Source: a virus
Virus record (IMG/VR): IMGVR_UViG_3300045988_104385
Reading direction: 5' to 3' (one strand)
DNA length: 17,527 bases
Shown here: positions 1 to 17,527 of the stretch, piece by piece
Position numbering within the stretch: the stretch's first letter is position 1
Layout: every line of letters starts with the position of its first letter
Notes under the pieces: model-generated
Seen by the model: only the letters and a program-made list of their open reading frames with translations
The model's database searches: none
What the model was told of the DNA's origin: nothing
Translations under genes and position numbers: made by a program

Positions 1-46
1 AGATGCAGCGTAGTCTCGTGGGCTCGGAGATGTGTATAAGAGACAG
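1..46. other. Illumina Nextera adapter remnant (library artefact, not biological)
   Basis: Positions 13-46 read GTCTCGTGGGCTCGGAGATGTGTATAAGAGACAG, the Nextera read-2 transposase adapter ending in the 19-nt Tn5 mosaic end. They are preceded by AGAT plus 8 nt (GCAGCGTA) in the i7 index position. The exact reverse complement is at 17482-17527. Confidence 0.95.
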
Positions 47-115
47 TATATAGTCCGTCCCACGCGGACATTTTCCCAATTTTGTCCGCGTACGGCGGAC
101 AGCACATTGCACAAC

Positions 116-150
116 AAAAGCGGTGTCCGCGAGAGAAAGACACCGCTTTT
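116..150. terminator. Bidirectional intrinsic-terminator-like hairpin inside the ITR
   Basis: AAAAGCGGTGTC (116-127), an 11-nt loop, then GACACCGCTTTT (139-150). This is a perfect 12-bp stem with an A-run on one side and a T-run on the other, so a U-tract follows the stem in either direction. Confidence 0.6.
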
Positions 151-231
151 GCAATGTATTTGTTTGCATTTGTTCATTTTTCAATACTTTTTCAAACACA
201 TATGCCCGAAATTTTTATGCATTTTTCCAAC

Positions 232-260
232 TTGACAAAAACGCTTTACCCGACTAAAGT
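232..260 (+). promoter_or_regulatory. Sigma-A type promoter in the left ITR, reading inward
   Basis: TTGACA (232-237), a 17-nt spacer, then TAAAGT (255-260). T-tracts spaced about 10-11 bp apart lie upstream (159-226), resembling an UP element or curved DNA. Confidence 0.5.
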
Positions 261-443
261 GTTAGTCCCGTCTAATTGTCTATACAATTCCACAATTATT
301 CACGTTTTCCGACCGAATCACGCACAATTCTTCTGAAATACTTACTCATTTTGCCCGAAAAGTGGACGAAACCGACCGTTTGTACGCGGGACGCGGACAC
401 TTCCGAAACGGTAACTCACTTTAGTTTGCTAAAGTGTCCGCGA

Positions 444-850
444 GTGACGGACACGGCGCGTCCGTTCCGTCCGCGCCTGCCCTCCGGTGTCGTCCGCTCC
501 GCGGACTGCCTGTTATATTATATGTGTAAATTTAGTTATCGCTTGTGATCGTACGGTTGTATGCCAGTGGCCGCCGGAGACTGTAGCGCTTCGCGCGCCA
601 TCCGGGTGACGGACACGGCGCGTCCGTTCCGTCCGCGCCTGCCCTCCGGTGTCGTCCGCTCCGCGGACTGCCTGTTATATTATATGTGTAAATTTAGTTA
701 TCGCTTGTGATCGTGCGGTTGTATGCCAGTGGCCGCCGGAGACTGTAGCGCTTCGAGCGCCATCCGGGTGACGGACACGGCGCTGCGTGTTCCGCAGGCT
801 GCCTTGCATATTATGTGTGTAACTTTTGTTACTTAGTCACACACCGCATT
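444..850. repeat. 162-bp GC-rich tandem repeat: two full copies (444-605, 606-767) plus a degenerate, internally deleted third copy (768 to about 850)
   Basis: GTGACGGACACGGCG starts at 444, 606 and 768, giving a period of 162. Copies 1 and 2 differ at two positions that I could see (gtacgg versus gtgcgg; tcgcgcgc versus tcgagcgc). Copy 3 keeps the ends of the unit but lacks about 40 nt of the GC core, and it runs past the ITR boundary at 791. Confidence 0.9.
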
Positions 851-2843: not shown

Positions 2844-3602
2844 TCAATAAAATTGATAAAACAATTCTTTGCAATCATCGCAGATACGCTTGTTAAGATT
2901 CAGGATGGTATCGCGGAATCTCTGTATTTCTAATGAGTAACTACCGTCAAAACCCTCATCTTCAATCGTATCATTATTATCTGCATGATACGTGTCATTG
3001 CTGTTGGTTTTTGTTGTATTCTCTCCATTGCTTACCGCACTGTTATGGATGGTATTCTGTCCCCGATCCATCGTAGACGCATAATTCGTTCCGGCGAAAT
3101 TAATTTGCGGATTATCAGAGTGAATATTTTGTGTATTGTTATTTGTATCGGCTGTCGTTGTGTTTTTCGCTGTGCTGTCTCCCGAGATCACACCTGTTCG
3201 TGTATCGTCTTTTGTACTTTGCACTTTTCGTGTACTCTTATGAGTAATAAGCGGGTTGTATTCAAAAGTAATACTCCGGTACAACTGCTCATAGTATGGC
3301 ATATTGATAGTAAGGATTCGTTTGAGATGATACTGAAATTCGCCGATCGTTTCCAGTCCGATCTGTTCCCGAAAATACTGTAAACAGAACGTTTTTTCGA
3401 ACGTAAGTTTTGCGGTTGCATATTCTGGAGCGGATGCATCAACATAAAACGGAAAGTCAAAATTGAAGATTAAAGGAACGGCGGTTTCGATCATCTTGTC
3501 GATCGTCTGATTTTCAAGTGGGGAAATTACGTGATCGGAAATAACCAACTGTTCAATGGTATTCGTTAACGTTTTCGTTTCGTAGTTATAGTCAAGAAAC
3601 AT
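2844..3602 (-). CDS. Lower collar protein (phi29 gp11-like)
   Basis: 252 aa, immediately downstream of the portal gene with a TAATG overlap. The motif YFREQIGLETIGEFQYHLKRILTINMPYYEQLYRS matches the conserved lower-collar pattern (YFREIG.ET.G.F...MPYYNQLY). Synteny follows the 9-10-11-12 order. Confidence 0.75.
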   Translation of the reverse strand: MFLDYNYETKTLTNTIEQLVISDHVISPLENQTIDKMIETAVPLIFNFDFPFYVDASAPEYATAKLTFEKTFCLQYFREQIGLETIGEFQYHLKRILTINMPYYEQLYRSITFEYNPLITHKSTRKVQSTKDDTRTGVISGDSTAKNTTTADTNNNTQNIHSDNPQINFAGTNYASTMDRGQNTIHNSAVSNGENTTKTNSNDTYHADNNDTIEDEGFDGSYSLEIQRFRDTILNLNKRICDDCKELFYQFY

Positions 3603-4555
3603 TATTCCACCTCACTTTCCGGTTTGCCGGTTTCCGGTGTTTTCTGTTCGCCGTTTTTTATTGTCTCAAATGCATCTGGTCGGTTAATCGGCGTTACCAT
3701 CTTAGAATTAAAACGCACATGGATATTCAAACCATACATTTCATTGATCGAATCAAGTCCCCTCTGAATGGTAGCCAGATTTCCGTTTCTTGTCAACTCG
3801 ATTTCTCCATCGTTGTAGCTCGTTTCTGCGGAAACCAACCTTTCCGGTTTTTCCACGCCGCTTGCTTCGATTCCGAGATCAGCCAGACATTCTGCTGTTT
3901 CTCTCTGTGCGGCGGTGTCAAGTTCGTTAAAGATTGGCTTTACTTTCAAGTCAATGGTATCAATCTGAATCTGTTTTCGCAGATCGTTTTTTGCTTTGAT
4001 GAAAGGAATATTTTTTACCCACTTCTGAATAAAGTTGTCAATGGATAACTTCTGCGTAGAATCCCCGCTGATGACAACCGGCGTTCTCTGCTGAATCACG
4101 TTTACCCTTGTTGACGCTTTTTTCTCCGCCAAACTCTGCGAATGCAGAATAATGCTTAGGATTTCCGGTACAGCAAAAGGTCTGGCAAAAATCAACGAAC
4201 TTTCGTTTTTGTCCGTCTGCTCATAATACTGACCATTCATAGCGTAGGCAATCCAATCGGTAGGAATCCCGTAAATATCGGGTTCGCCAACCAGATTAAC
4301 ACCAAACACGCCGAAAAGTCCGGTGATTGGCTCTTTTTTGAACAGGCACATTCCTTGCCATAACAGATAGGAGTTGAGCATCCGTGGCGGAATCTCATCC
4401 GGTAACCCGTCATACTCATACCGCGACAACGCTAGATTGACGAACTTGTCAAAAAAGTGCTTGAAATACATTTTTTCTTCCGGTGACGTATTCGGGTTGT
4501 TTTCCCATTGTCCCCACACTTCTTTGTTACTCACCCGATACGGGTTATTATACAT
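3602..4555 (-). CDS. Portal / upper collar connector (phi29 gp10-like)
   Basis: 317 aa. Segments align by eye to phi29 gp10: [24 protein letters not shown] versus [41 protein letters not shown] versus [30 protein letters not shown] versus INELYGLNVKVKF. SD AAGGAGG is present. Confidence 0.9.
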   Translation of the reverse strand: [317 protein letters not shown]

Positions 4556-10043: not shown

Positions 10044-10153
10044 CTTTGCTCCTTTCTTCCTGTCCTTAAAACAAGGAAACCTTTTGACCTGCCAAGGACA
10101 GGGCGGTTTACTCAACCGTGGCAACCCCTTTTAAAAGGTTTCCCCGTATTTTC

Positions 10154-10182
10154 ATGATACATCTTTTGTATCCGTATGTCAA
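10154..10182 (-). promoter_or_regulatory. Late (lysis plus morphogenesis) operon promoter
   Basis: On the minus strand: TTGACA (10182-10177), a 17-nt spacer, then TATCAT (10159-10154). It lies in the 192-nt gap between the ATPase stop and the next ATG. Confidence 0.6.
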
Positions 10183-10229
10183 GTACATTTGTCCGTCTCC
10201 CCGTATGTCAAGTACATTTGTCCGTCTCC
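10172..10229. repeat. Perfect 29-bp tandem duplication carrying the -35 hexamer
   Basis: CCGTATGTCAAGTACATTTGTCCGTCTCC at 10172-10200 and again at 10201-10229. The minus strand reads GGAGACGGACAAATGTACTTGACATACGG twice. Confidence 0.9.
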
Positions 10230-10235
10230 AACGAA

Positions 10236-11375
10236 CTATTTATAAAGATCAATCCCCAAAAGCTCGAGTGCCATATTTTTGCTGTCTAAATCGTCAAAAC
10301 GCAAATATGCTTGTTGGTACGCTTCTTCTAACCGTACAAACAAATAATCATAATGATCTAGCATAACCGTGTGCTGTGTGTGGTCTCCGTCCCGAAAAAC
10401 GGCAATATACGTGCAAGACGGGTTACATTTATGTGTGATATAAATATACCCGTCTTCGTAATAGTCATACACACCATAACTTTTGCCGTTGTACTGAATG
10501 GTGAACAGATACCGCGACCGTCCGGTCGGTTTCTGGACAAAAACAGCATCATCAATCAACATACGGTCACCAACGCTCATGCTTTGCATATAGTGACCGT
10601 CACGGAATGCTTTCAGTGCCGGATTTTCCCACATCGCCTTACTAGCACTGTCATTGTGGGTAAATTCACACACATAACCGCTCCCATGCATCATTTTTGT
10701 ATCTTTCTGATATCGTTTATGGATGCCGAAAAATACAAAATAGGGATTGAGTAACGATATATTATTGGATGCCATAATCAGTTTAAACCACCTTGACTGA
10801 TTTCCGTTTCCACGGCTAATCGTAATCAACAACGACTGCATGATTTCAGATTCCCCTTTTACGTACTTTCCGCTTTCCGTGCAAAACTCGTCAAAAAGCA
10901 AAAAGTAGATATCCCGAAAATACGGAGACAATTTTTTTACACTGTCCATCTTACTTCCAAAACTAAACGCGCATCCGAATGGCACACCGTCCAGAAAATA
11001 ACGCACGACATTTCCGTTTTTGTCCAGATTTTTATAGGTAATCACACTTCCTAATTTAGGATACATGCTTAGCATATCTTCGTACATTGCCGCCGCTCCC
11101 GTCATTTCCCCTTTCGTCCGGAAAATCCATCCGGTCTGTAATCCGTACTCTTTGCACAATATACAGCTTGCCGCGGAGAACGCACTTGTCTTTCCGGCGC
11201 TACGGTTGGAACACGTAATTGCTACGCCAGCGAAATCCCCGTCCACGTCCGGCTCTGAAAACAACCGAATCGGATTGTAATACTGAATCGCTTTCCCGTT
11301 ATCGTCTACCGCTTCAAATTTCACATCATATTCAGAAAAAAGTTTTTCCCATGGAATATCGTTCCAAAAAATCAT
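10236..11375 (-). CDS. DNA encapsidation (packaging) ATPase, phi29 gp16-like
   Basis: 379 aa. Walker A is SNRSAGKTS and Walker B is YFLLFDEF. ASNNISLLNPYFVFFGI aligns with phi29 LSNAVSVVNPYFLFFNL, and C-terminal QQAYLRFDDLDSKNMALELL with NGYLRFDNQVIRNIAYELF. It has about 27 extra N-terminal residues relative to gp16. Confidence 0.92.
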   Translation of the reverse strand: MIFWNDIPWEKLFSEYDVKFEAVDDNGKAIQYYNPIRLFSEPDVDGDFAGVAITCSNRSAGKTSAFSAASCILCKEYGLQTGWIFRTKGEMTGAAAMYEDMLSMYPKLGSVITYKNLDKNGNVVRYFLDGVPFGCAFSFGSKMDSVKKLSPYFRDIYFLLFDEFCTESGKYVKGESEIMQSLLITISRGNGNQSRWFKLIMASNNISLLNPYFVFFGIHKRYQKDTKMMHGSGYVCEFTHNDSASKAMWENPALKAFRDGHYMQSMSVGDRMLIDDAVFVQKPTGRSRYLFTIQYNGKSYGVYDYYEDGYIYITHKCNPSCTYIAVFRDGDHTQHTVMLDHYDYLFVRLEEAYQQAYLRFDDLDSKNMALELLGIDLYK

Positions 11376-11391
11376 TGTTTCACGTGAAACA
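11376..11391. promoter_or_regulatory. Perfect 16-bp palindrome TGTTTCACGTGAAACA abutting the ATPase start codon (operator-like site, copy 1)
   Basis: Read directly from the sequence; it lies 1 nt from the ATG at 11375. An extra half-site GTTTCACG is at 11397-11404. The same 19-mer recurs at 14766-14784. Confidence 0.55.
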
Positions 11392-11431
11392 TTTTTGTTT
11401 CACGCCCTCCTTTCTATCATCCCGCTCCGCG

Positions 11432-11451
11432 TCCCCGCCAGTTCCCCGCCA
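11432..11451. repeat. Two direct repeats TCCCCGCCA with 11-bp phasing
   Basis: TCCCCGCCA at 11432-11440 and 11443-11451 (minus strand TGGCGGGGA twice). Confidence 0.6.
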
Positions 11452-11466
11452 GCAAAACCGCAGACA

Positions 11467-11496
11467 ATCTCACGTTTATCGCACGATGATCGCACG
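11467..11496. repeat. Three direct repeats ATC(T/G)CACG with 11-bp phasing
   Basis: ATCTCACG at 11467, ATCGCACG at 11478 and ATCGCACG at 11489. They share the CACG half of the CACGTG palindrome core. Confidence 0.6.
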
Positions 11497-11542
11497 TTTT
11501 GACTGCGGATGGACGGCGGGTAAGGGCAGATTCGCTAGATGT

Positions 11543-11575
11543 AAAAAAGAGATACGTTTTATAGCGTATCTCTCT
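11543..11575 (-). terminator. Rho-independent terminator ending the replication-gene transcription unit
   Basis: Minus strand: AGAGATACG, loop CTATAAAA, CGTATCTCT, then TTTTT. This is a 9-bp perfect stem (11565-11573 pairing with 11548-11556) followed by a T5 run. Confidence 0.7.
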
Positions 11576-11691
11576 TTACACGTATGGAGTTTTTTCAAAA
11601 ATACACAAGATACAGTAACAATCAACTACAGGTAACTTATCATACTCAAGTCTACCGTCCGCCAGTCGGAGCGCGTATTAACGTCATATAT

Positions 11692-12111
11692 TTAAGCAAA
11701 CGGATTAAATTTTTTTAGTTCGCCGAATTTATGGACGTTTACGGCGGAAAGGTAAGCGGTAAAACCCTTGTCGCGGCGGAACTTGCTTTCTCCGATGGAG
11801 ATGAAGAGGTCAACAACTGCGCCTTTACCGAGTTCGTCAACGCTGGAAACGGTGTCGCTCTCAATTCCGTCCTCATAAAAGGCAACGCGGTAACTTGTCT
11901 GCGCTTTTACGTAAAGACCAGATTCGTCACTTTCTTTCGCCGGAATCCACTTTGCTTCCGCGGCGGCATCATTACCGAACTCTTCGATAATTTTTTCAAA
12001 GATGGCTTTCTGCTGATCTTCTGTGATCGAAGCAGAAAGAACGCTTTTTCCGTCCTCTTCCCTTGCATATTTTACAGTTACGTTGTTCAGTTTCATTTTT
12101 GCTTTACTCAT
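11692..12111 (-). CDS. Putative single-stranded DNA-binding protein (OB-fold, gp2.5/DUF2815-like pattern)
   Basis: 139 aa in the replication module with SD AAAGGAGAG. The pattern GAVVDLFISIGESKF..DKGFTAYLSAVNV resembles the C-terminal beta strands of T7 gp2.5-type SSBs. The call rests on pattern and position only. Confidence 0.35.
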   Translation of the reverse strand: MSKAKMKLNNVTVKYAREEDGKSVLSASITEDQQKAIFEKIIEEFGNDAAAEAKWIPAKESDESGLYVKAQTSYRVAFYEDGIESDTVSSVDELGKGAVVDLFISIGESKFRRDKGFTAYLSAVNVHKFGELKKFNPFA

Positions 12112-12218: not shown

Positions 12219-12455
12219 TTAATCGTCCAGTCTCTTTGCTTCGGCAAAGAACTGTTCGTCCGGCATCTCGTAGCGGGCGGATACGGTATCGGTTAATACA
12301 CAGATGAAATCCTCCGGAAAACCAGCGGCGGCAACAGCGGCGGTTTTTGCTTTCTGCGTTTTCAGTTCTTCTGTATTCTCAAAAGAGCCGATCACCTGTT
12401 TTGTGTTTCTGTCAATAACAGAGTAGATAAATTTTTCGATTTTTGTTCTAACCAT
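12219..12455 (-). CDS. Hypothetical protein (78 aa)
   Basis: Clean ORF with an A/G-rich SD region, directly downstream of a strong promoter. I recognise no motifs. Confidence 0.55.
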   Translation of the reverse strand: MVRTKIEKFIYSVIDRNTKQVIGSFENTEELKTQKAKTAAVAAAGFPEDFICVLTDTVSARYEMPDEQFFAEAKRLDD

Positions 12456-12667: not shown

Positions 12668-14827
12668 CTATTCCGGTAACACTCCGTCTTGAGAGTTTAC
12701 CAATACTTCATAGTATTCATTCGATACACCTAAGGTATAAGTGGTATCAAGGATTCCAATATTACTTGCAGTTAAAATTTCTTCCCCGTTGACGTTGATG
12801 TAATGGGGTTTGGTGTTATGAAAGCAACTGATCGTTCGTCCGACATTTTCCATTCTGCGGCAGAGACGGAAATTATTACAGCACTTTATATTTTCCGCGC
12901 CTAATTTTTTGTTCATGCCAGCGACCGTAGACGTAAAACGCACGGGGTCTTTGCCGGATTCGGCAGCTTTTTTGTCCCATTCCACGCCGCAGTATTTTTT
13001 CGCGCCTAACGTCTTAAACTGGACATACAGATCATCCATATCCCATACGCCGAGAATGTAGCGTTTCTCCCCAACGTCACAAAATGCTGGAATATCATTA
13101 GCAATCGCACGTTTTTCCAGTATTTTGTTTTTGGCTTCAAATTCTGGAATGTGTACGTCCGGATGTAAAAACTTGATACTATCGGTATCGCAGTACACGG
13201 CATCCATTCCAACAACATCCAGCATATCTTGTAACTGTTTTCTAGCATGGGCGGTAACATAGATACCCCACTGGTAGTGCAAAAAACTGTTTTTTCCCTC
13301 ATAGTACGTTTTCAGTGCTTTTTCCGCATCTGCTTTTTCCCGATGCCATTCTCCCGTAAAAGCATCCATTGCCCATTCGTCATGTAAAAGATCTGTCACG
13401 CACATACCGAATGTGCTGTTCAATTTATTCTTAGATTTCATATACTCATAGACTTTATCGGGATTTCCTTTTAACTGGCTTTTTGCGATAAAAAATGACA
13501 TCATCGTTTTACGCATACTTTCCGGTAATTTTCCGCGCGCGGCTACGTAGCACTCCGAGACGGTAAAGAAATCATAGTCGTATTGATTTTTTATGATCGA
13601 CAAGTCAATTTCCGTCATTGCTATTTCACAGCAATTAATAGAGAGTACGCGCCCATTATCAATCTCACAATCTTTCCCGTGCTTCTGACACTTTGACAGC
13701 GGGATATACGGGACGGGGATATTTTCTTTCATACGCAAGTTGTCAAATTGTACCCGCATAATAACACAGCGGGTAGCACACAAGTTGTCAAACTGTTCCT
13801 GCGATGTGACCGCAACCGCCCGAAACGCACTCATGGGATAATACTCCGTTGCAATCTGCGCCGGATAACTACTCGAAATATCCATACTTCCCATAACGAT
13901 CACAGATTCACCTTTTTTCGCTGTGATCGTGTGCCCCGCGTGAATGCGGTTGGCGTGGGTATTGCCGCCACGGAACGCGTCTTTGCAAAGCTGGTACTGC
14001 GGTAACGTCAAAGCCAGATCGGCAAATACTCCCGGATAATAACCGCTATCTGCCTGCATGGCACGGCGGAATTCTCGGCGGACGTAGCCAGTTGAGGTAA
14101 GGGGGATTTCTGCTAGATTATCCTCTTTTCGTAAGGCGCGGATGCATTCACACAAGCCGCGAACATCGTTATAGCAGTATCCTTGCTCTATTTCTGTTAG
14201 TGGTGTGGTTGGGGTACGTAGTTTTTTATAGTCATAAGTATCAACCAGTTTATAGTGGGTTACACCCTCACTGTTCTCGCAAAATTTCGAAAGGCTCATA
14301 TTGCTGAGAAAATACGAGCAACGAAATTCAATCCCATACTTGTAAGCGTAGCACTTCATAACTTTATGCGCGTCACGCGCAAAGATCTCATCAAATTCTA
14401 TAAAATCTTTCATGAATTGAAATTCGTAGGAAAGATTATGAACGTACACTACAGCACGCTTTGAATCGGAAGTCTGCAAATACAGATGCAGTTTTTCGCA
14501 GAATGAAAGAAACTCATTCCATGTGCGACCGAAACACACGGTATCTTTGATACAAAACTGCCATTGATACAGAAAGGCAGTTCCTTTCACCACTTTTTCG
14601 CCTGTTTTATGATAGCGTTCATAATCAAGTTTTTCTAACGTAGTTGTTTCGATGTCGAACGACATTTCCACGTCATAATAAACGATAGGATTTTTCTTTC
14701 TTCCGCTTTTGCGGCATTCGCGCAAAGTCTGGAAATCAGAAAATGGAAAATCATTAACGGAATAAATTGTTTCACGTGAAACATCTTCGTTTCCGTTTAC
14801 GATAACAGGGATATCCAATTGATACAT
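12668..14827 (-). CDS. Protein-primed family-B DNA polymerase
   Basis: 719 aa. Exo I is FDIETTT, Exo II is VHNLSYEFQF and Exo III is YCYNDVRGL. Motif A is DISSSYPAQI (phi29 DVNSLYPAQM), motif B is KSKNKLNSTFG (K..NS.YG), motif C is VYCDTDSIKF (phi29 IYCDTDSIH), and the KxY motif is GAKKYCG. Confidence 0.97.
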   Translation of the reverse strand: MYQLDIPVIVNGNEDVSRETIYSVNDFPFSDFQTLRECRKSGRKKNPIVYYDVEMSFDIETTTLEKLDYERYHKTGEKVVKGTAFLYQWQFCIKDTVCFGRTWNEFLSFCEKLHLYLQTSDSKRAVVYVHNLSYEFQFMKDFIEFDEIFARDAHKVMKCYAYKYGIEFRCSYFLSNMSLSKFCENSEGVTHYKLVDTYDYKKLRTPTTPLTEIEQGYCYNDVRGLCECIRALRKEDNLAEIPLTSTGYVRREFRRAMQADSGYYPGVFADLALTLPQYQLCKDAFRGGNTHANRIHAGHTITAKKGESVIVMGSMDISSSYPAQIATEYYPMSAFRAVAVTSQEQFDNLCATRCVIMRVQFDNLRMKENIPVPYIPLSKCQKHGKDCEIDNGRVLSINCCEIAMTEIDLSIIKNQYDYDFFTVSECYVAARGKLPESMRKTMMSFFIAKSQLKGNPDKVYEYMKSKNKLNSTFGMCVTDLLHDEWAMDAFTGEWHREKADAEKALKTYYEGKNSFLHYQWGIYVTAHARKQLQDMLDVVGMDAVYCDTDSIKFLHPDVHIPEFEAKNKILEKRAIANDIPAFCDVGEKRYILGVWDMDDLYVQFKTLGAKKYCGVEWDKKAAESGKDPVRFTSTVAGMNKKLGAENIKCCNNFRLCRRMENVGRTISCFHNTKPHYINVNGEEILTASNIGILDTTYTLGVSNEYYEVLVNSQDGVLPE
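14768..14783. promoter_or_regulatory. Second copy of the 16-bp palindrome TGTTTCACGTGAAACA, inside the polymerase 5' coding region
   Basis: Read directly; it encodes residues VSRET of the polymerase. The exact shared 19-mer ATTGTTTCACGTGAAACAT spans 14766-14784 and 11374-11392. Confidence 0.5.
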
Positions 14828-14837
14828 TGATATTACC

Positions 14838-15416
14838 TCACTTTAATTTAGTTCTATTCTTATTAAAAAGTTCTTCCTCCGTAATATATCCATCAAGAAA
14901 TTCCTCATACTCTTCCAGAATATCTTCGAATTCAATTCCGCTATCATGTAATTTCAAAATAAAATCATCAATAAGCTGATCGGATGCCACCTGCTTTCTC
15001 AGATTCTTTTTGTATATATTAGAGGTAAGAAAACGATACAGGTCTTTGTAGTTATCTTCTGTTACTTCTACATCAATTTTATTCTTTGACTTGTCAAAGC
15101 GTCTCTGTAATTCTGCGATTCGATATCCCTCAAGCGTTGTTTCGGGTGAATTCAGAAAAGCGATCATGGTATCCCATTCTTGCCGAATGGATGCATCCGG
15201 CCGCTTTACGCCTTTCAAAAAGCGATCTTTTGATCGCCCTTGTGACGCAAAAAACTCTTTTACGCGCCCGTACTCCCACTGGTCGCGCGCGTGAATTTTT
15301 TCCAGTTTGGCAAGGCGGCTATTCGCCGCCTGCGCAACACGTGGAAGTTCGCGTTTGATCTGGTCAAGGGATAAGTCAAGTTCTTGATAGATGCTGTAGT
15401 CTTTTGAGTTCGGCAT
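14838..15416 (-). CDS. Putative terminal (priming) protein
   Basis: 192 aa, 10 nt upstream of the polymerase gene on the same strand (the phi29 gene 3/gene 2 arrangement). The N-terminal half is basic and the C-terminal region strongly acidic (DDFILKLHDSGIEFEDILEEYEEFLDGYITEEELF). I could not confirm sequence homology by eye. Confidence 0.45.
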   Translation of the reverse strand: MPNSKDYSIYQELDLSLDQIKRELPRVAQAANSRLAKLEKIHARDQWEYGRVKEFFASQGRSKDRFLKGVKRPDASIRQEWDTMIAFLNSPETTLEGYRIAELQRRFDKSKNKIDVEVTEDNYKDLYRFLTSNIYKKNLRKQVASDQLIDDFILKLHDSGIEFEDILEEYEEFLDGYITEEELFNKNRTKLK

Positions 15417-15660: not shown

Positions 15661-16011
15661 TTAATAGAAGCAATCTTCATTTTCTCCATCTGACGTATAC
15701 AGAGGGCACAACGTGCAGTTATCATTTGCAGAACAGATAACGCTATGCGGAACTTCTACATAATACGCTTTCAACGCGTAACGTGTAGAAATATTGTTAT
15801 GCAAGTTTACAGTAAATCCCACACCAAAATTACCTTTGTACGGAACTAGTACACATAATGCATCCTTCTTAACATAGCCATTAGTAAGAGACGCATGGTC
15901 ATACACGTAAATATGGATATTCCCAGCAGTATCTTCCTGTTTTACATATAAGGGGATCTCATCAAGTTTCGCTGGTAAGGTATACAGTTTCTCTAAATCT
16001 ACTACTTTCAT
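15661..16011 (-). CDS. Hypothetical early protein (116 aa) with a Cys-rich C-terminus
   Basis: SD AAAGGA lies 6 nt upstream of the ATG. The C-terminus CSANDNCTLCPLYTSDGENEDC contains four Cys residues. I recognise no family. Confidence 0.55.
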   Translation of the reverse strand: MKVVDLEKLYTLPAKLDEIPLYVKQEDTAGNIHIYVYDHASLTNGYVKKDALCVLVPYKGNFGVGFTVNLHNNISTRYALKAYYVEVPHSVICSANDNCTLCPLYTSDGENEDCFY

Positions 16012-16337: not shown

Positions 16338-16616
16338 CTATCTATTGCAAGACATCTTGTAAGTAGCAAATATTTCCGGTCTAAGATCTGAGTAGTAATA
16401 AAAAGCATCTTCCGAAAAATATTCTCCATTTACTATTTCTATTCCATTTTCATAGATGGAAAAGAAAATTTCACTATTTTCTTTCATAGCTTGTGAACAG
16501 AAAGTTTTTACTAATCCATTTGCTGTTAATAATGACTCAACTTTATATCTGATAATCTCTTTTCCATATTTTGTTACTACAACTTCATAGCCACTTTGTC
16601 TCTTAATTTCTTTCAT
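16338..16616 (-). CDS. Hypothetical early protein (92 aa), the first gene of the early operon
   Basis: The track ORF starts at 16631, but ATG 16616 has SD GGAGGA 7 nt upstream, giving MKEIKRQ... I recognise no motifs. Confidence 0.55.
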   Translation of the reverse strand: MKEIKRQSGYEVVVTKYGKEIIRYKVESLLTANGLVKTFCSQAMKENSEIFFSIYENGIEIVNGEYFSEDAFYYYSDLRPEIFATYKMSCNR

Positions 16617-16669
16617 TTTTGTTTCCTCCATTTTCTATTTGTATGATTGGTTTCCTTGTTTCTGATATT

Positions 16670-16698
16670 ACAATACCACTTTCCTAGAAAAATATCAA
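16670..16698 (-). promoter_or_regulatory. Early promoter with extended -10, just inside the right ITR boundary
   Basis: Minus strand: AAAAAAGTA TTGATA (16698-16693), a 17-nt spacer ending in TGg, then TATTGT (16675-16670) followed by AATA. Its architecture is nearly the same as the promoter at 12501-12529. Confidence 0.6.
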
Positions 16699-16736
16699 TA
16701 CTTTTTTCTAGCATAAACTATTTAATATTACAAATA

Positions 16737-17084
16737 AACACGCAGCGCCGTGTCCGTCACCCGGATGGCGCTCGAAGCGCTACAGTCTCCGGCGGCCACT
16801 GGCATACAACCGCACGATCACAAGCGATAACTAAATTTACACATATAATATAACAGGCAGTCCGCGGAGCGGACGACACCGGAGGGCAGGCGCGGACGGA
16901 ACGGACGCGCCGTGTCCGTCACCCGGATGGCGCGCGAAGCGCTACAGTCTCCGGCGGCCACTGGCATACAACCGTACGATCACAAGCGATAACTAAATTT
17001 ACACATATAATATAACAGGCAGTCCGCGGAGCGGACGACACCGGAGGGCAGGCGCGGACGGAACGGACGCGCCGTGTCCGTCAC
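16737..17084. repeat. Mirror of the 162-bp tandem repeat in the right ITR (16923-17084, 16761-16922, plus 24 nt of a third copy)
   Basis: Reverse complement of 444-791. The array is cut off at the ITR boundary, after which a unique AT-rich promoter region follows. Confidence 0.9.
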
Positions 17085-17267
17085 TCGCGGACACTTTAGC
17101 AAACTAAAGTGAGTTACCGTTTCGGAAGTGTCCGCGTCCCGCGTACAAACGGTCGGTTTCGTCCACTTTTCGGGCAAAATGAGTAAGTATTTCAGAAGAA
17201 TTGTGCGTGATTCGGTCGGAAAACGTGAATAATTGTGGAATTGTATAGACAATTAGACGGGACTAAC

Positions 17268-17296
17268 ACTTTAGTCGGGTAAAGCGTTTTTGTCAA
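17268..17296 (-). promoter_or_regulatory. Mirror copy of the ITR promoter, reading inward toward the early genes
   Basis: Reverse complement of 232-260. On the minus strand it points toward the early gene block. Confidence 0.5.
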
Positions 17297-17377
17297 GTTG
17301 GAAAAATGCATAAAAATTTCGGGCATATGTGTTTGAAAAAGTATTGAAAAATGAACAAATGCAAACAAATACATTGC

Positions 17378-17412
17378 AAAAGCGGTGTCTTTCTCTCGCG
17401 GACACCGCTTTT
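17378..17412. terminator. Mirror copy of the ITR bidirectional terminator-like hairpin
   Basis: Reverse complement of 116-150, within the right ITR. Confidence 0.6.
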
Positions 17413-17481
17413 GTTGTGCAATGTGCTGTCCGCCGTACGCGGACAAAATTGGGAAAATGTCCGCGTGGGACGGACTATATA

Positions 17482-17527
17482 CTGTCTCTTATACACATCT
17501 CCGAGCCCACGAGACTACGCTGCATCT
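17482..17527. other. Illumina Nextera adapter remnant (mirror copy)
   Basis: CTGTCTCTTATACACATCTCCGAGCCCACGAGAC followed by TACGCTGCATCT is the reverse complement of positions 1-46. Confidence 0.95.

Follow-up and report, generated by a model that had tools for sequence, protein, structure and literature searches.

In the adenovirus inverted terminal repeat (ITR), an A/T-rich terminal core is followed by dyad-symmetric NFI/Oct-1 sites and then by a GC-rich inner segment, which is stimulatory and non-essential. Among small protein-primed phages, the ITRs are 6 bp in phi29 and 25–30 bp in Clostridium perfringens podoviruses (PMC3362512; PMC11476376). The phi29 protein p6 contacts DNA every 12 bp, nucleates near both genome ends, activates initiation, and represses an early promoter; it reads bendability rather than a sequence motif (PMC4974454). 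The packaging RNA (pRNA, RF00044) is known solely from Bacillus phi29-like phages (PMC11476376), and the N-terminal RKR of the phi29 portal is indispensable for pRNA binding (PMC12084888).

The window analyzed in the present study, i.e., the whole stretch of 17,527 nucleotides, is a near-complete 17.5-kb genome of a phi29-like podovirus, in which all genes are on the minus strand. Its nearest isolate is Clostridium phage HM2 (17.5 kb; polB 45% identical). More than 100 close relatives were present in IMG/VR, 80 of which were kept (polB 88–98% identical). The ITR of HM2 is approximately 170 bp, AT-rich, and devoid of GC-rich repeats, whereas those of this clade are 574–816 bp and contain a repeat array. 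Besides the genes listed below, a lower collar, a tail protein, a phi29-type major capsid protein, a holin, and lysins were identified with Pfam and PHROG. A candidate terminal protein (192 aa, 14838-15416; 0 homology matches) was named from its position upstream of the polymerase gene alone.

1..46: sequencing adapter, not phage DNA (8-base index, Nextera transposase adapter, and Tn5 mosaic end)
3602-4555, minus strand: upper collar/portal, phi29-type (PHROG 2038)
10236-11375, minus strand: Podovirus_Gp16 ATPase (PF05894)
12668-14827, minus strand: polB of the protein-primed type (PHROG 1907 match at 1e-49)
17482..17527: adapter at the opposite end, reverse complement

Bases 1-46 and 17482-17527 are a Nextera mosaic end, transposase adapter, and 8-base index. 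Megablast matches in unrelated phage records span these bases alone, which corroborates the assignment, and the adapter bases were also the only DNA-level (megablast) matches of the window to GenBank phages. The adapter overwrote the terminus of the window itself. The true end in many relatives reads AAACATATATA(T/C)AGTCCG; therefore, approximately 7 nt of the true terminus are missing before position 47. The termini of the relatives begin with AAA, a candidate terminal base reiteration for sliding back. In practical terms, the record has adapter at both ends, and most related contigs break within the array.

The window is bounded by a 791-nt inverted repeat that is 100% complementary, and 745 nt of it are genuine phage DNA; an identical inverted sequence at both physical ends defines it as an ITR. 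The elements of the two ends are as follows:

47..791: left ITR, genuine part, 100% complementary to 16737-17481
53-69 and 84-100: two terminal dyads, GTCCG-N7-CGGAC
116..152: palindromic hairpin AAAAGCGGTGTC-N11-GACACCGCTTTT, followed by a T-rich tail on each strand
382..399: dyad TGTCCGCG-N3-CGCGGACA, imperfect here and a perfect palindrome in relatives
433..454: basal dyad GTGTCCG-N7-CGGACAC, present in all relatives, including those with zero units
444..605: repeat unit 1 (162 bp)
606..767: repeat unit 2, identical to unit 1 except at 2 positions
768..791: first 24 nt of a third unit (GTGACGGACACGGCGCTGCGTGTT), forming the inner ITR boundary
792..850: degenerate rest of the third unit, at the left end only and outside the ITR (nhmmer E=0.00097)
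16670..16698, minus strand: early promoter TTGATA-17-TATTGT, driving the first gene (16338-16631, minus strand)
16737..17481: right ITR, genuine part, directly upstream of the early promoter
16761-16922 and 16923-17084: mirror units 2 and 1 in the right ITR

Independent contigs also have unit-bearing ITRs (574 nt with one unit in contig 021135, 816 nt with 2.7 units in contig 058210), so that an assembly error does not account for the ITR here. Inverted copies of the unit were found at the two ends of at least 12 contigs. The terminal dyads lie at distances of 6 and 37 nt from the true end of the genome, and their arms were invariant and their spacers variable in the 24 relatives compared. The hairpin at 116-152 resembles a terminator acting on transcripts that run outward toward the end of the genome, and its stem shows a G-C to A-T double change in relative L017. 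The right half of the basal dyad is GTGACGGACAC, the direct repeat that bounds each unit. The array ends approximately 40 nt upstream of the early promoter, which is conserved in relatives and flanked there by TTCTAGAA palindromes. An inward promoter-like site at 232-260 was rejected because its spacer is broken by a 10-nt poly-A insertion in three relatives.

TRF returned 2.1 copies with a period of 162 and 98% matches at 444-783, and a mirror array at 16745-17084. Units 1 and 2 differ at 553 (A/G) and 594 (C/A). A sequence-only reading of this DNA had described near-identical units with a degenerate third at each end. The full units are mirrored, whereas the degenerate third is restricted to the left end: the right arm shares the first 24 nt only and then diverges. 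The remnant at 792-850 runs up to the last late gene (stop codon at 861), and is absent at the equivalent place in contig 021135. The GC content of the unit is 60% versus 41% in the unique genome, and a recount of 601-660 gave the 45 G+C in 60 previously reported. Within unit 1, the left part (444-510) is 76% GC, the core (511-545, TGTTATATTATATGTGTAAATTTAGTTATCG) 23%, and the right part (546-605) 65%. We rejected a protein-coding unit because the AT-rich core has stops in every frame and the sole ORFs, started by TTG or GTG, are not conserved. A mobile element was rejected because the unit body has no terminal inverted repeats and the unit is confined to this clade. A restriction-site decoy was likewise rejected because the unique genome shows no avoidance of CCGG, CGCG, or GCGC.

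The length of the array, taken as the distance between the conserved left flank CTAAAGTGTCCG and the early promoter, was measured in the 29 relatives with both of these assembled; copy numbers are from short-read assemblies throughout, and exact values may be underestimates. The array was 67–107 nt in nine relatives (eight without a unit, and L001 with a remnant of approximately 45 nt), 147 nt in L012 (a larger partial unit), approximately 216–282 nt in eight (one unit), and approximately 307–357 nt in six (approximately 1.5 units, through partial internal duplications). It reached 386 nt in the window (2.1 units) and 457 nt in L017 (2.7 units). Head-to-tail copies that differ in number among relatives make the array a variable-number tandem repeat. 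The nine relatives lacking a full unit have a polB approximately 90% identical or better, the same gene order, and the same packaging motor. Copy-number states are scattered across the polB tree, and it is the nearest relative of the window, L001 (polB 98%), that retains just the short remnant. The units are bounded by GTGACGGACACGGCGC, and zero-unit genomes read ...GTGTCCGCGGGTGACGGACACGGCGCGGCGTGATTATGTG..., which is the window sequence minus the units between the GTGACGGACACGGCGC direct repeats. The inner ITR boundary falls immediately past GTGACGGACAC in three genomes (the window and two others), which suggests that duplication, deletion, and ITR conversion use this repeat as their junction. 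The unit is a clade-specific, non-coding, dispensable module of variable copy number at the inner edge of the ITR.

Over 136 genome pairs, identity was 86% in the unit core, 90.5% in the terminal 400 nt, and 65.5% at four-fold degenerate sites of polB. The difference between the unit and the neutral sites indicates purifying selection or efficient homogenization. A pattern of 19 specified bases from the AT-rich core was found in 54 stretches in IMG/VR, all of them near the ends of contigs of 6–17 kb belonging to this clade only. More distant relatives (polB 54–71%) showed no unit; their contigs end at the ITR edge, with no deeper footprint. An 18-mer scan of genome contigs returned unrelated matches of 18–24 nt only, such as REP-like elements in Acidobacteria MAGs, and no phage contig within an isolate genome, which left no clue to a host; a 14-mer scan of viral contigs yielded mainly noise.

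The half-site GTCCG/CGGAC, with the extended forms TGTCCGCG and ACGGACA, pervades the ITR. GTCCGCG occurs 19 times versus 1.55 expected, and 18 of these copies are inside the ITRs. The dyad GTCCG-N7-CGGAC occurs six times in the window versus 0.01 expected, at 53-69, 84-100, and 436-452 in the left arm, and the everted dyad CGGAC-N7-GTCCG, found once per unit, occurs four times versus 0.01 expected. Within 47-605, the non-redundant ITR, CGGAC, GCGGAC, and CGCGGAC rank first among the 5-, 6-, and 7-mers, and CGGAC itself occurs 12 times versus 1.05 in local-composition shuffles. The modal start-to-start spacing of half-sites is 12 bp, and many alternate in orientation; within units, spacings of 3, 5, and 7 nt are mixed. 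A palindrome CCGGAGG...CCTCCGG keeps its arms around a loop of 7 or 18 nt. ACGGACA occurs nine times versus 2.1 expected; six copies are in the units, where only the boundary copy has this extended form, and two are at the following internal promoter:

10182-10154, minus strand: internal promoter TTGACA-17-TATCAT (11/12 match), within the element 10154..10229

At this promoter, ACGGACA lies 7 nt upstream of the -35 as a lone half-site with no partner, and the 29-bp element carrying both ACGGACA and the -35 is duplicated at 10154-10229. ACGGACA was found 6–8 nt upstream of a TTGACA in 64 of the 80 relatives, while the sequence further upstream varies. The motif is thus over-represented, conserved amid varying flanks and spacers, and reused at other regulatory positions, as in a binding-site array. 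Found at the genome ends, ahead of the early promoter, and at the internal promoter, it behaves like a protein-recognition sequence in double-stranded DNA.

We consider that the array may well be an accessory binding array of double-stranded half-sites, auxiliary to the origin or to early/late regulation, and hold this with about even confidence. We infer from the sequence that a protein binds the motif, as well as the effect of that binding. A sequence-specific DNA-binding protein, encoded clade-wide or supplied by the host, would recognize the GTCCG/CGGAC half-sites. Its core sites would be the terminal and basal dyads, to which the units would add further sites that strengthen or tune a complex at the genome end. 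This complex would act in protein-primed initiation, in regulating the early promoter next to it, or in both. The array would grow and shrink at the GTGACGGACAC repeats on its flanks through slippage, template switching, or recombination. Since the unit is dispensable in relatives, any function is modulatory at most. An origin-associated protein-binding array had been the second proposal of the sequence-only reading; it fits the evidence best, whereas the p6-like protein and binding partner that it called for did not emerge. No p6 homologue was found among the window proteins with PHROG and Pfam, and the array does not qualify as a p6-type nucleation site. Pfam and PHROG gave no DNA-binding match among the early proteins, sequence searches of the PDB were empty or non-significant (E >= 0.05), and no early gene co-occurred with the unit. 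The AF2 model of the universal 116-aa early protein (15661-16011) had a pLDDT of 39 and was unusable. Other early proteins are those of 78 aa (12219-12455) and 139 aa (11692-12111).

A more specific possibility is that the array is a contingency locus. The units would form a bank of half-sites for a regulator of the internal ACGGACA-TTGACA promoter and the termini, and copy number would tune initiation and the early-to-late switch. We regard this as unlikely. If it is true, copy number would change fast through recombination at GTGACGGACAC and would set how strongly the ends recruit or titrate that regulator.

The array had first been proposed as the best candidate for a pRNA-like RNA, i.e., an RNA of approximately 160 nt per unit bridging the portal and the gp16-type ATPase. 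The phage encodes a phi29-type portal and a Podovirus_Gp16 ATPase. The unit resembles the phi29 pRNA gene in lying near the genome end of a protein-primed podovirus and in length (162 versus 174/120 nt; PMC11476376), and its outward TATAAT is oriented like the phi29 A1 promoter. However, a search with RF00044 at E<=10 gave no match on either strand of the window, and one at E<=1 gave none in the relatives L017, L005, and L004 or in HM2; phi29 pRNA, as a positive control in the same search, scored 145.4 bits (E=1.6e-35) against the membership threshold of 100 bits, the gathering score. In RNA folding against dinucleotide shuffles, the unit was no better than chance (z = -0.73 on the plus strand, -1.54/-1.66 on the minus strand). 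Thirty-three distinct units were gathered from relatives (mean column identity 74%; many core columns invariant), and RNAalifold gave weak consensus folds with no three-way junction, covariation terms of +0.08 (plus) and +0.3 (minus), one dubious pair, and no compensatory pairs. Many stem columns are invariant, which limits the power of this comparison, yet in the same genomes the intrinsic terminator at approximately 11577-11543 (minus strand) shows a compensatory A-T to C-G change. The helices listed earlier for the unit are all present in the sequence; several overlap and are therefore mutually exclusive, and their density is no more than chance for the composition. The perfect outward TATAAT is also present, but it has no -35 and varies in relatives to TATGAT, TATAAA, and TAGATA; no sigma-70-like promoter was called on either strand of 444-850. 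The N terminus of the portal (MYNNPYRVSNKEVWGQWENN...) has no basic RKR segment: residues 1-29 ahead of the aligned core are MYNNPYRVSNKEVWGQWENNPNTSPEEKM, and the phi29 equivalent is MARKRSNTYRSINEIQRQKRNRW. The premise that a phi29-type motor needs a pRNA was too broad, as pRNA is known only from Bacillus phages (PMC11476376). The portal here does not have the segment required for pRNA binding (PMC12084888). The unit further differs from the phi29 pRNA in being tandem, within the ITR, and missing from many close relatives; an RNA essential to a shared motor could not be as dispensable as a unit that nine of 29 relatives lack in full, which contradicts this proposal. We consider it very improbable. 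The earlier statement that no other pRNA is evident in the window holds, as no other region resembles a pRNA gene. Upstream of the ATPase gene, a non-coding stretch of 316 nt (11376-11691) was rejected as a pRNA locus because it contains an intrinsic terminator and repeated promoter-region motifs, and shows no conserved fold past the terminator; 10125-10235 was rejected as a duplicated promoter. Another type of structured RNA would place the left array, transcribed outward, in a late 3' UTR that extends to 116-152, as an mRNA stabilizer or small RNA. No terminator was called from the late stop (861) to the array, and 116-152 is a strong palindromic terminator-like hairpin. In addition, all 22 pair-preserving one-sided changes in the local hairpins tested produce G.U on the plus strand, with 21 other cells unpaired. 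However, the G.U-compatible plus strand runs inward, antisense to the late transcript at the left end, and the absence of covariation on both strands, the non-significant z-scores, the dispensability of the unit, and the lack of a conserved promoter of its own apply here as well; we find such an RNA improbable.

The palindromes may instead act in single-stranded DNA, as hairpins in the displaced strand that stall or guide the polymerase, aid panhandle formation or repair of the ITRs, or are recognized as hairpins. The half-site spacings and variable loops fit hairpins better than a rigid dimer site: the CCGGAGG/CCTCCGG arms are kept despite loops of 7 versus 18 nt, and the boundaries of the ITR and the units coincide with the dyad GTGTCCG-N7-CGGACAC. 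The telomere palindromes of Streptomyces are a precedent for structured single-stranded DNA at protein-capped ends. Four local hairpins of the sequence-only reading were paired in 96.0% of cells; however, a column-shuffle control gave 95.9%, with no double changes, although stem columns are often invariant and the power of this comparison is limited. The fold energy also did not exceed that of shuffles. A single arm sequence in all stems points to recognition of sequence, not structure, and at the internal promoter the half-site stands alone. Hairpins of this kind therefore appear to be a poor prospect. It is also conceivable, if somewhat unlikely, that the array is a functionless minisatellite, which arose by duplication and insertion at GTGACGGACAC, expands and contracts by slippage or template switching in strand-displacement replication, and was homogenized by conversion or recombination. 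The range of 0 to 2.7 copies, the scatter of these states on the polB tree, and the eight relatives with no unit beside one with a short remnant are in line with this explanation, as are partial internal duplications (HMM positions 1-99 followed by 41-152) and other module shuffling. Two differences within the genome versus 86% identity between genomes indicate concerted evolution, and the ITR arms are 100% identical. The high conservation of the unit need not reflect function, as gene conversion or recombination between phages that circulate together could also produce it. However, the identity of the unit far exceeds that at four-fold sites of polB, the AT-rich core is conserved with many invariant columns, the motif of the unit is also conserved at the termini and a promoter, and approximately two thirds of relatives retain the unit.

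For the accessory array of binding sites that we favor, the best-fitting analogy would be an auxiliary origin or promoter-upstream region, such as the p6 nucleation regions or the inner adenovirus ITR. Like the p6 sites of phi29, the array is in subterminal non-coding DNA, and its modal half-site spacing equals the 12-bp contact period of p6; in contrast to them, it has a discrete repeated motif, extends over hundreds of bp, varies in copy number, and is dispensable. The adenovirus ITR also belongs to a linear protein-primed genome, with dyad sites, a GC-rich inner part, and a length that varies among relatives. However, adenovirus infects eukaryotes and relies on host factors, its ITR is unrelated in sequence, and the inner segment here is a 162-bp tandem repeat. 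The phi29 p4-type regulator sites at the early/late promoter switch are similarly a short motif just upstream of the -35 of a later promoter and upstream of an early promoter, whereas the present motif bears no relation to them and occurs in many copies within the ITR, and no homologue of p4 was found.

Repeat-bearing ITRs with auxiliary sites are already known in protein-primed replicons, and the array would be a variant of this kind. The present results show that a pRNA cannot be presumed from a phi29-type motor, and there is no sign of one in this clade, which removes a wrong annotation. They also reveal that phi29-like phages of the gut have unusually long ITRs (approximately 570–820 bp), the inner part of which is constrained, yet dispensable and variable in copy number. 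If a protein binds the motif, these phages would provide a natural series from 0 to approximately 3 units for studying auxiliary sites in protein-primed origins and early/late regulation.

Sequence at both ends of the contig does not belong to the phage. The following features were located in the window:

1-46 and 17482-17527: leftover sequencing adapter at both contig ends
116-152, mirrored at 17376-17412: palindrome AAAAGCGGTGTC-N11-GACACCGCTTTT with a 12-bp stem and T-rich tails on both strands
232-260: promoter-like TTGACA-17-TAAAGT within the conserved terminal 400 nt
10172-10229: perfect 29-bp tandem duplication, which contains ACGGACA together with the -35 element (TTGACA) of promoter TTGACA-17-TATCAT
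11376-11391: perfect 16-bp palindrome TGTTTCACGTGAAACA where the ATPase gene begins
11400-11540, minus strand: direct repeats upstream of the ATPase gene, three ACGTGCGAT-like and two CTGGCGGGGA
~11543-11577, minus strand: intrinsic terminator 3' of the 139-aa gene
14768-14783: other perfect copy of the 16-bp palindrome, in the 5'-terminal part of the ORF annotated as polB

Each of these terminal stretches combines an index of 8 bases with Nextera transposase adapter and Tn5 mosaic end sequences. The matches of many unrelated public phage records to the window were confined to these stretches, which indicates that those records are contaminated with the same adapter. Relatives from IMG/VR (L001, L005, L010, L033, and others) start with AAACATATATA(T/C)AGTCCG at positions 1-12, and a comparison with these starts showed that approximately 7 terminal bases are missing from the window before position 47. 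Judging from the relatives, the true genome terminus carries 5' AAA, likewise present at the phi29 terminus (AAAGTA).

The palindrome at 116-152 lies approximately 70 nt from the genome end, and a double change from G-C to A-T was found in its stem in one relative (L017). It may be a terminator that halts outward transcription ahead of the terminus. The site at 232-260 is probably not a functional promoter because a 10-nt poly-A insertion splits it in three relatives (L047, L050, and L061, around position 235). Two copies of ACGGACA-TTGACA, as created by the duplication at 10172-10229, were found in no relative; ACGGACA is an extended form of the half-site that recurs in the repeat units and terminal dyads.

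The intrinsic terminator at ~11543-11577, in which a compensatory A-T to C-G change distinguishes the window from its relatives, was used as a positive control in the covariation analysis. The adjacent repeat-containing region (11400-11540) carries variable insertions in relatives and probably regulates a late promoter. The 16-bp palindrome is also present in Clostridium phage HM2 (L198, 10526-10546), despite polB being only 45% identical, and may be a conserved element that acts as an operator or controls translation.

In the unique genome (792-16736), AGCT (11 observed vs 57 expected) and CTAG (17 vs 57) were strongly depleted, and no depletion of CCGG, CGCG, or GCGC was detected. An 18-mer of the 162-bp unit, CGTCCGCTCCGCGGACTG, was also found among the genome_contigs matches (L199-L278), in intergenic REP-like elements of MAGs from Pyrinomonadaceae/Blastocatellia. 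Since no similarity extends past 18-24 nt at these loci, we judged this match to be coincidental.

In relatives, TTCTAGAA palindromes flank and overlap the early promoter (locus positions ~600-760) and look operator-like; degenerate versions, GCTAGAAAAAA and TTCTAGGAAA, occur at 16640-16740 of the window. In some relatives (L044, L051, and L320, first ~100 nt), the interval from the basal dyad to the early promoter contains a different module (…TTGATTAACAAAGTTAATTATTTCCGCCACGCGC…). The entire subterminal region is a mosaic of exchangeable modules.
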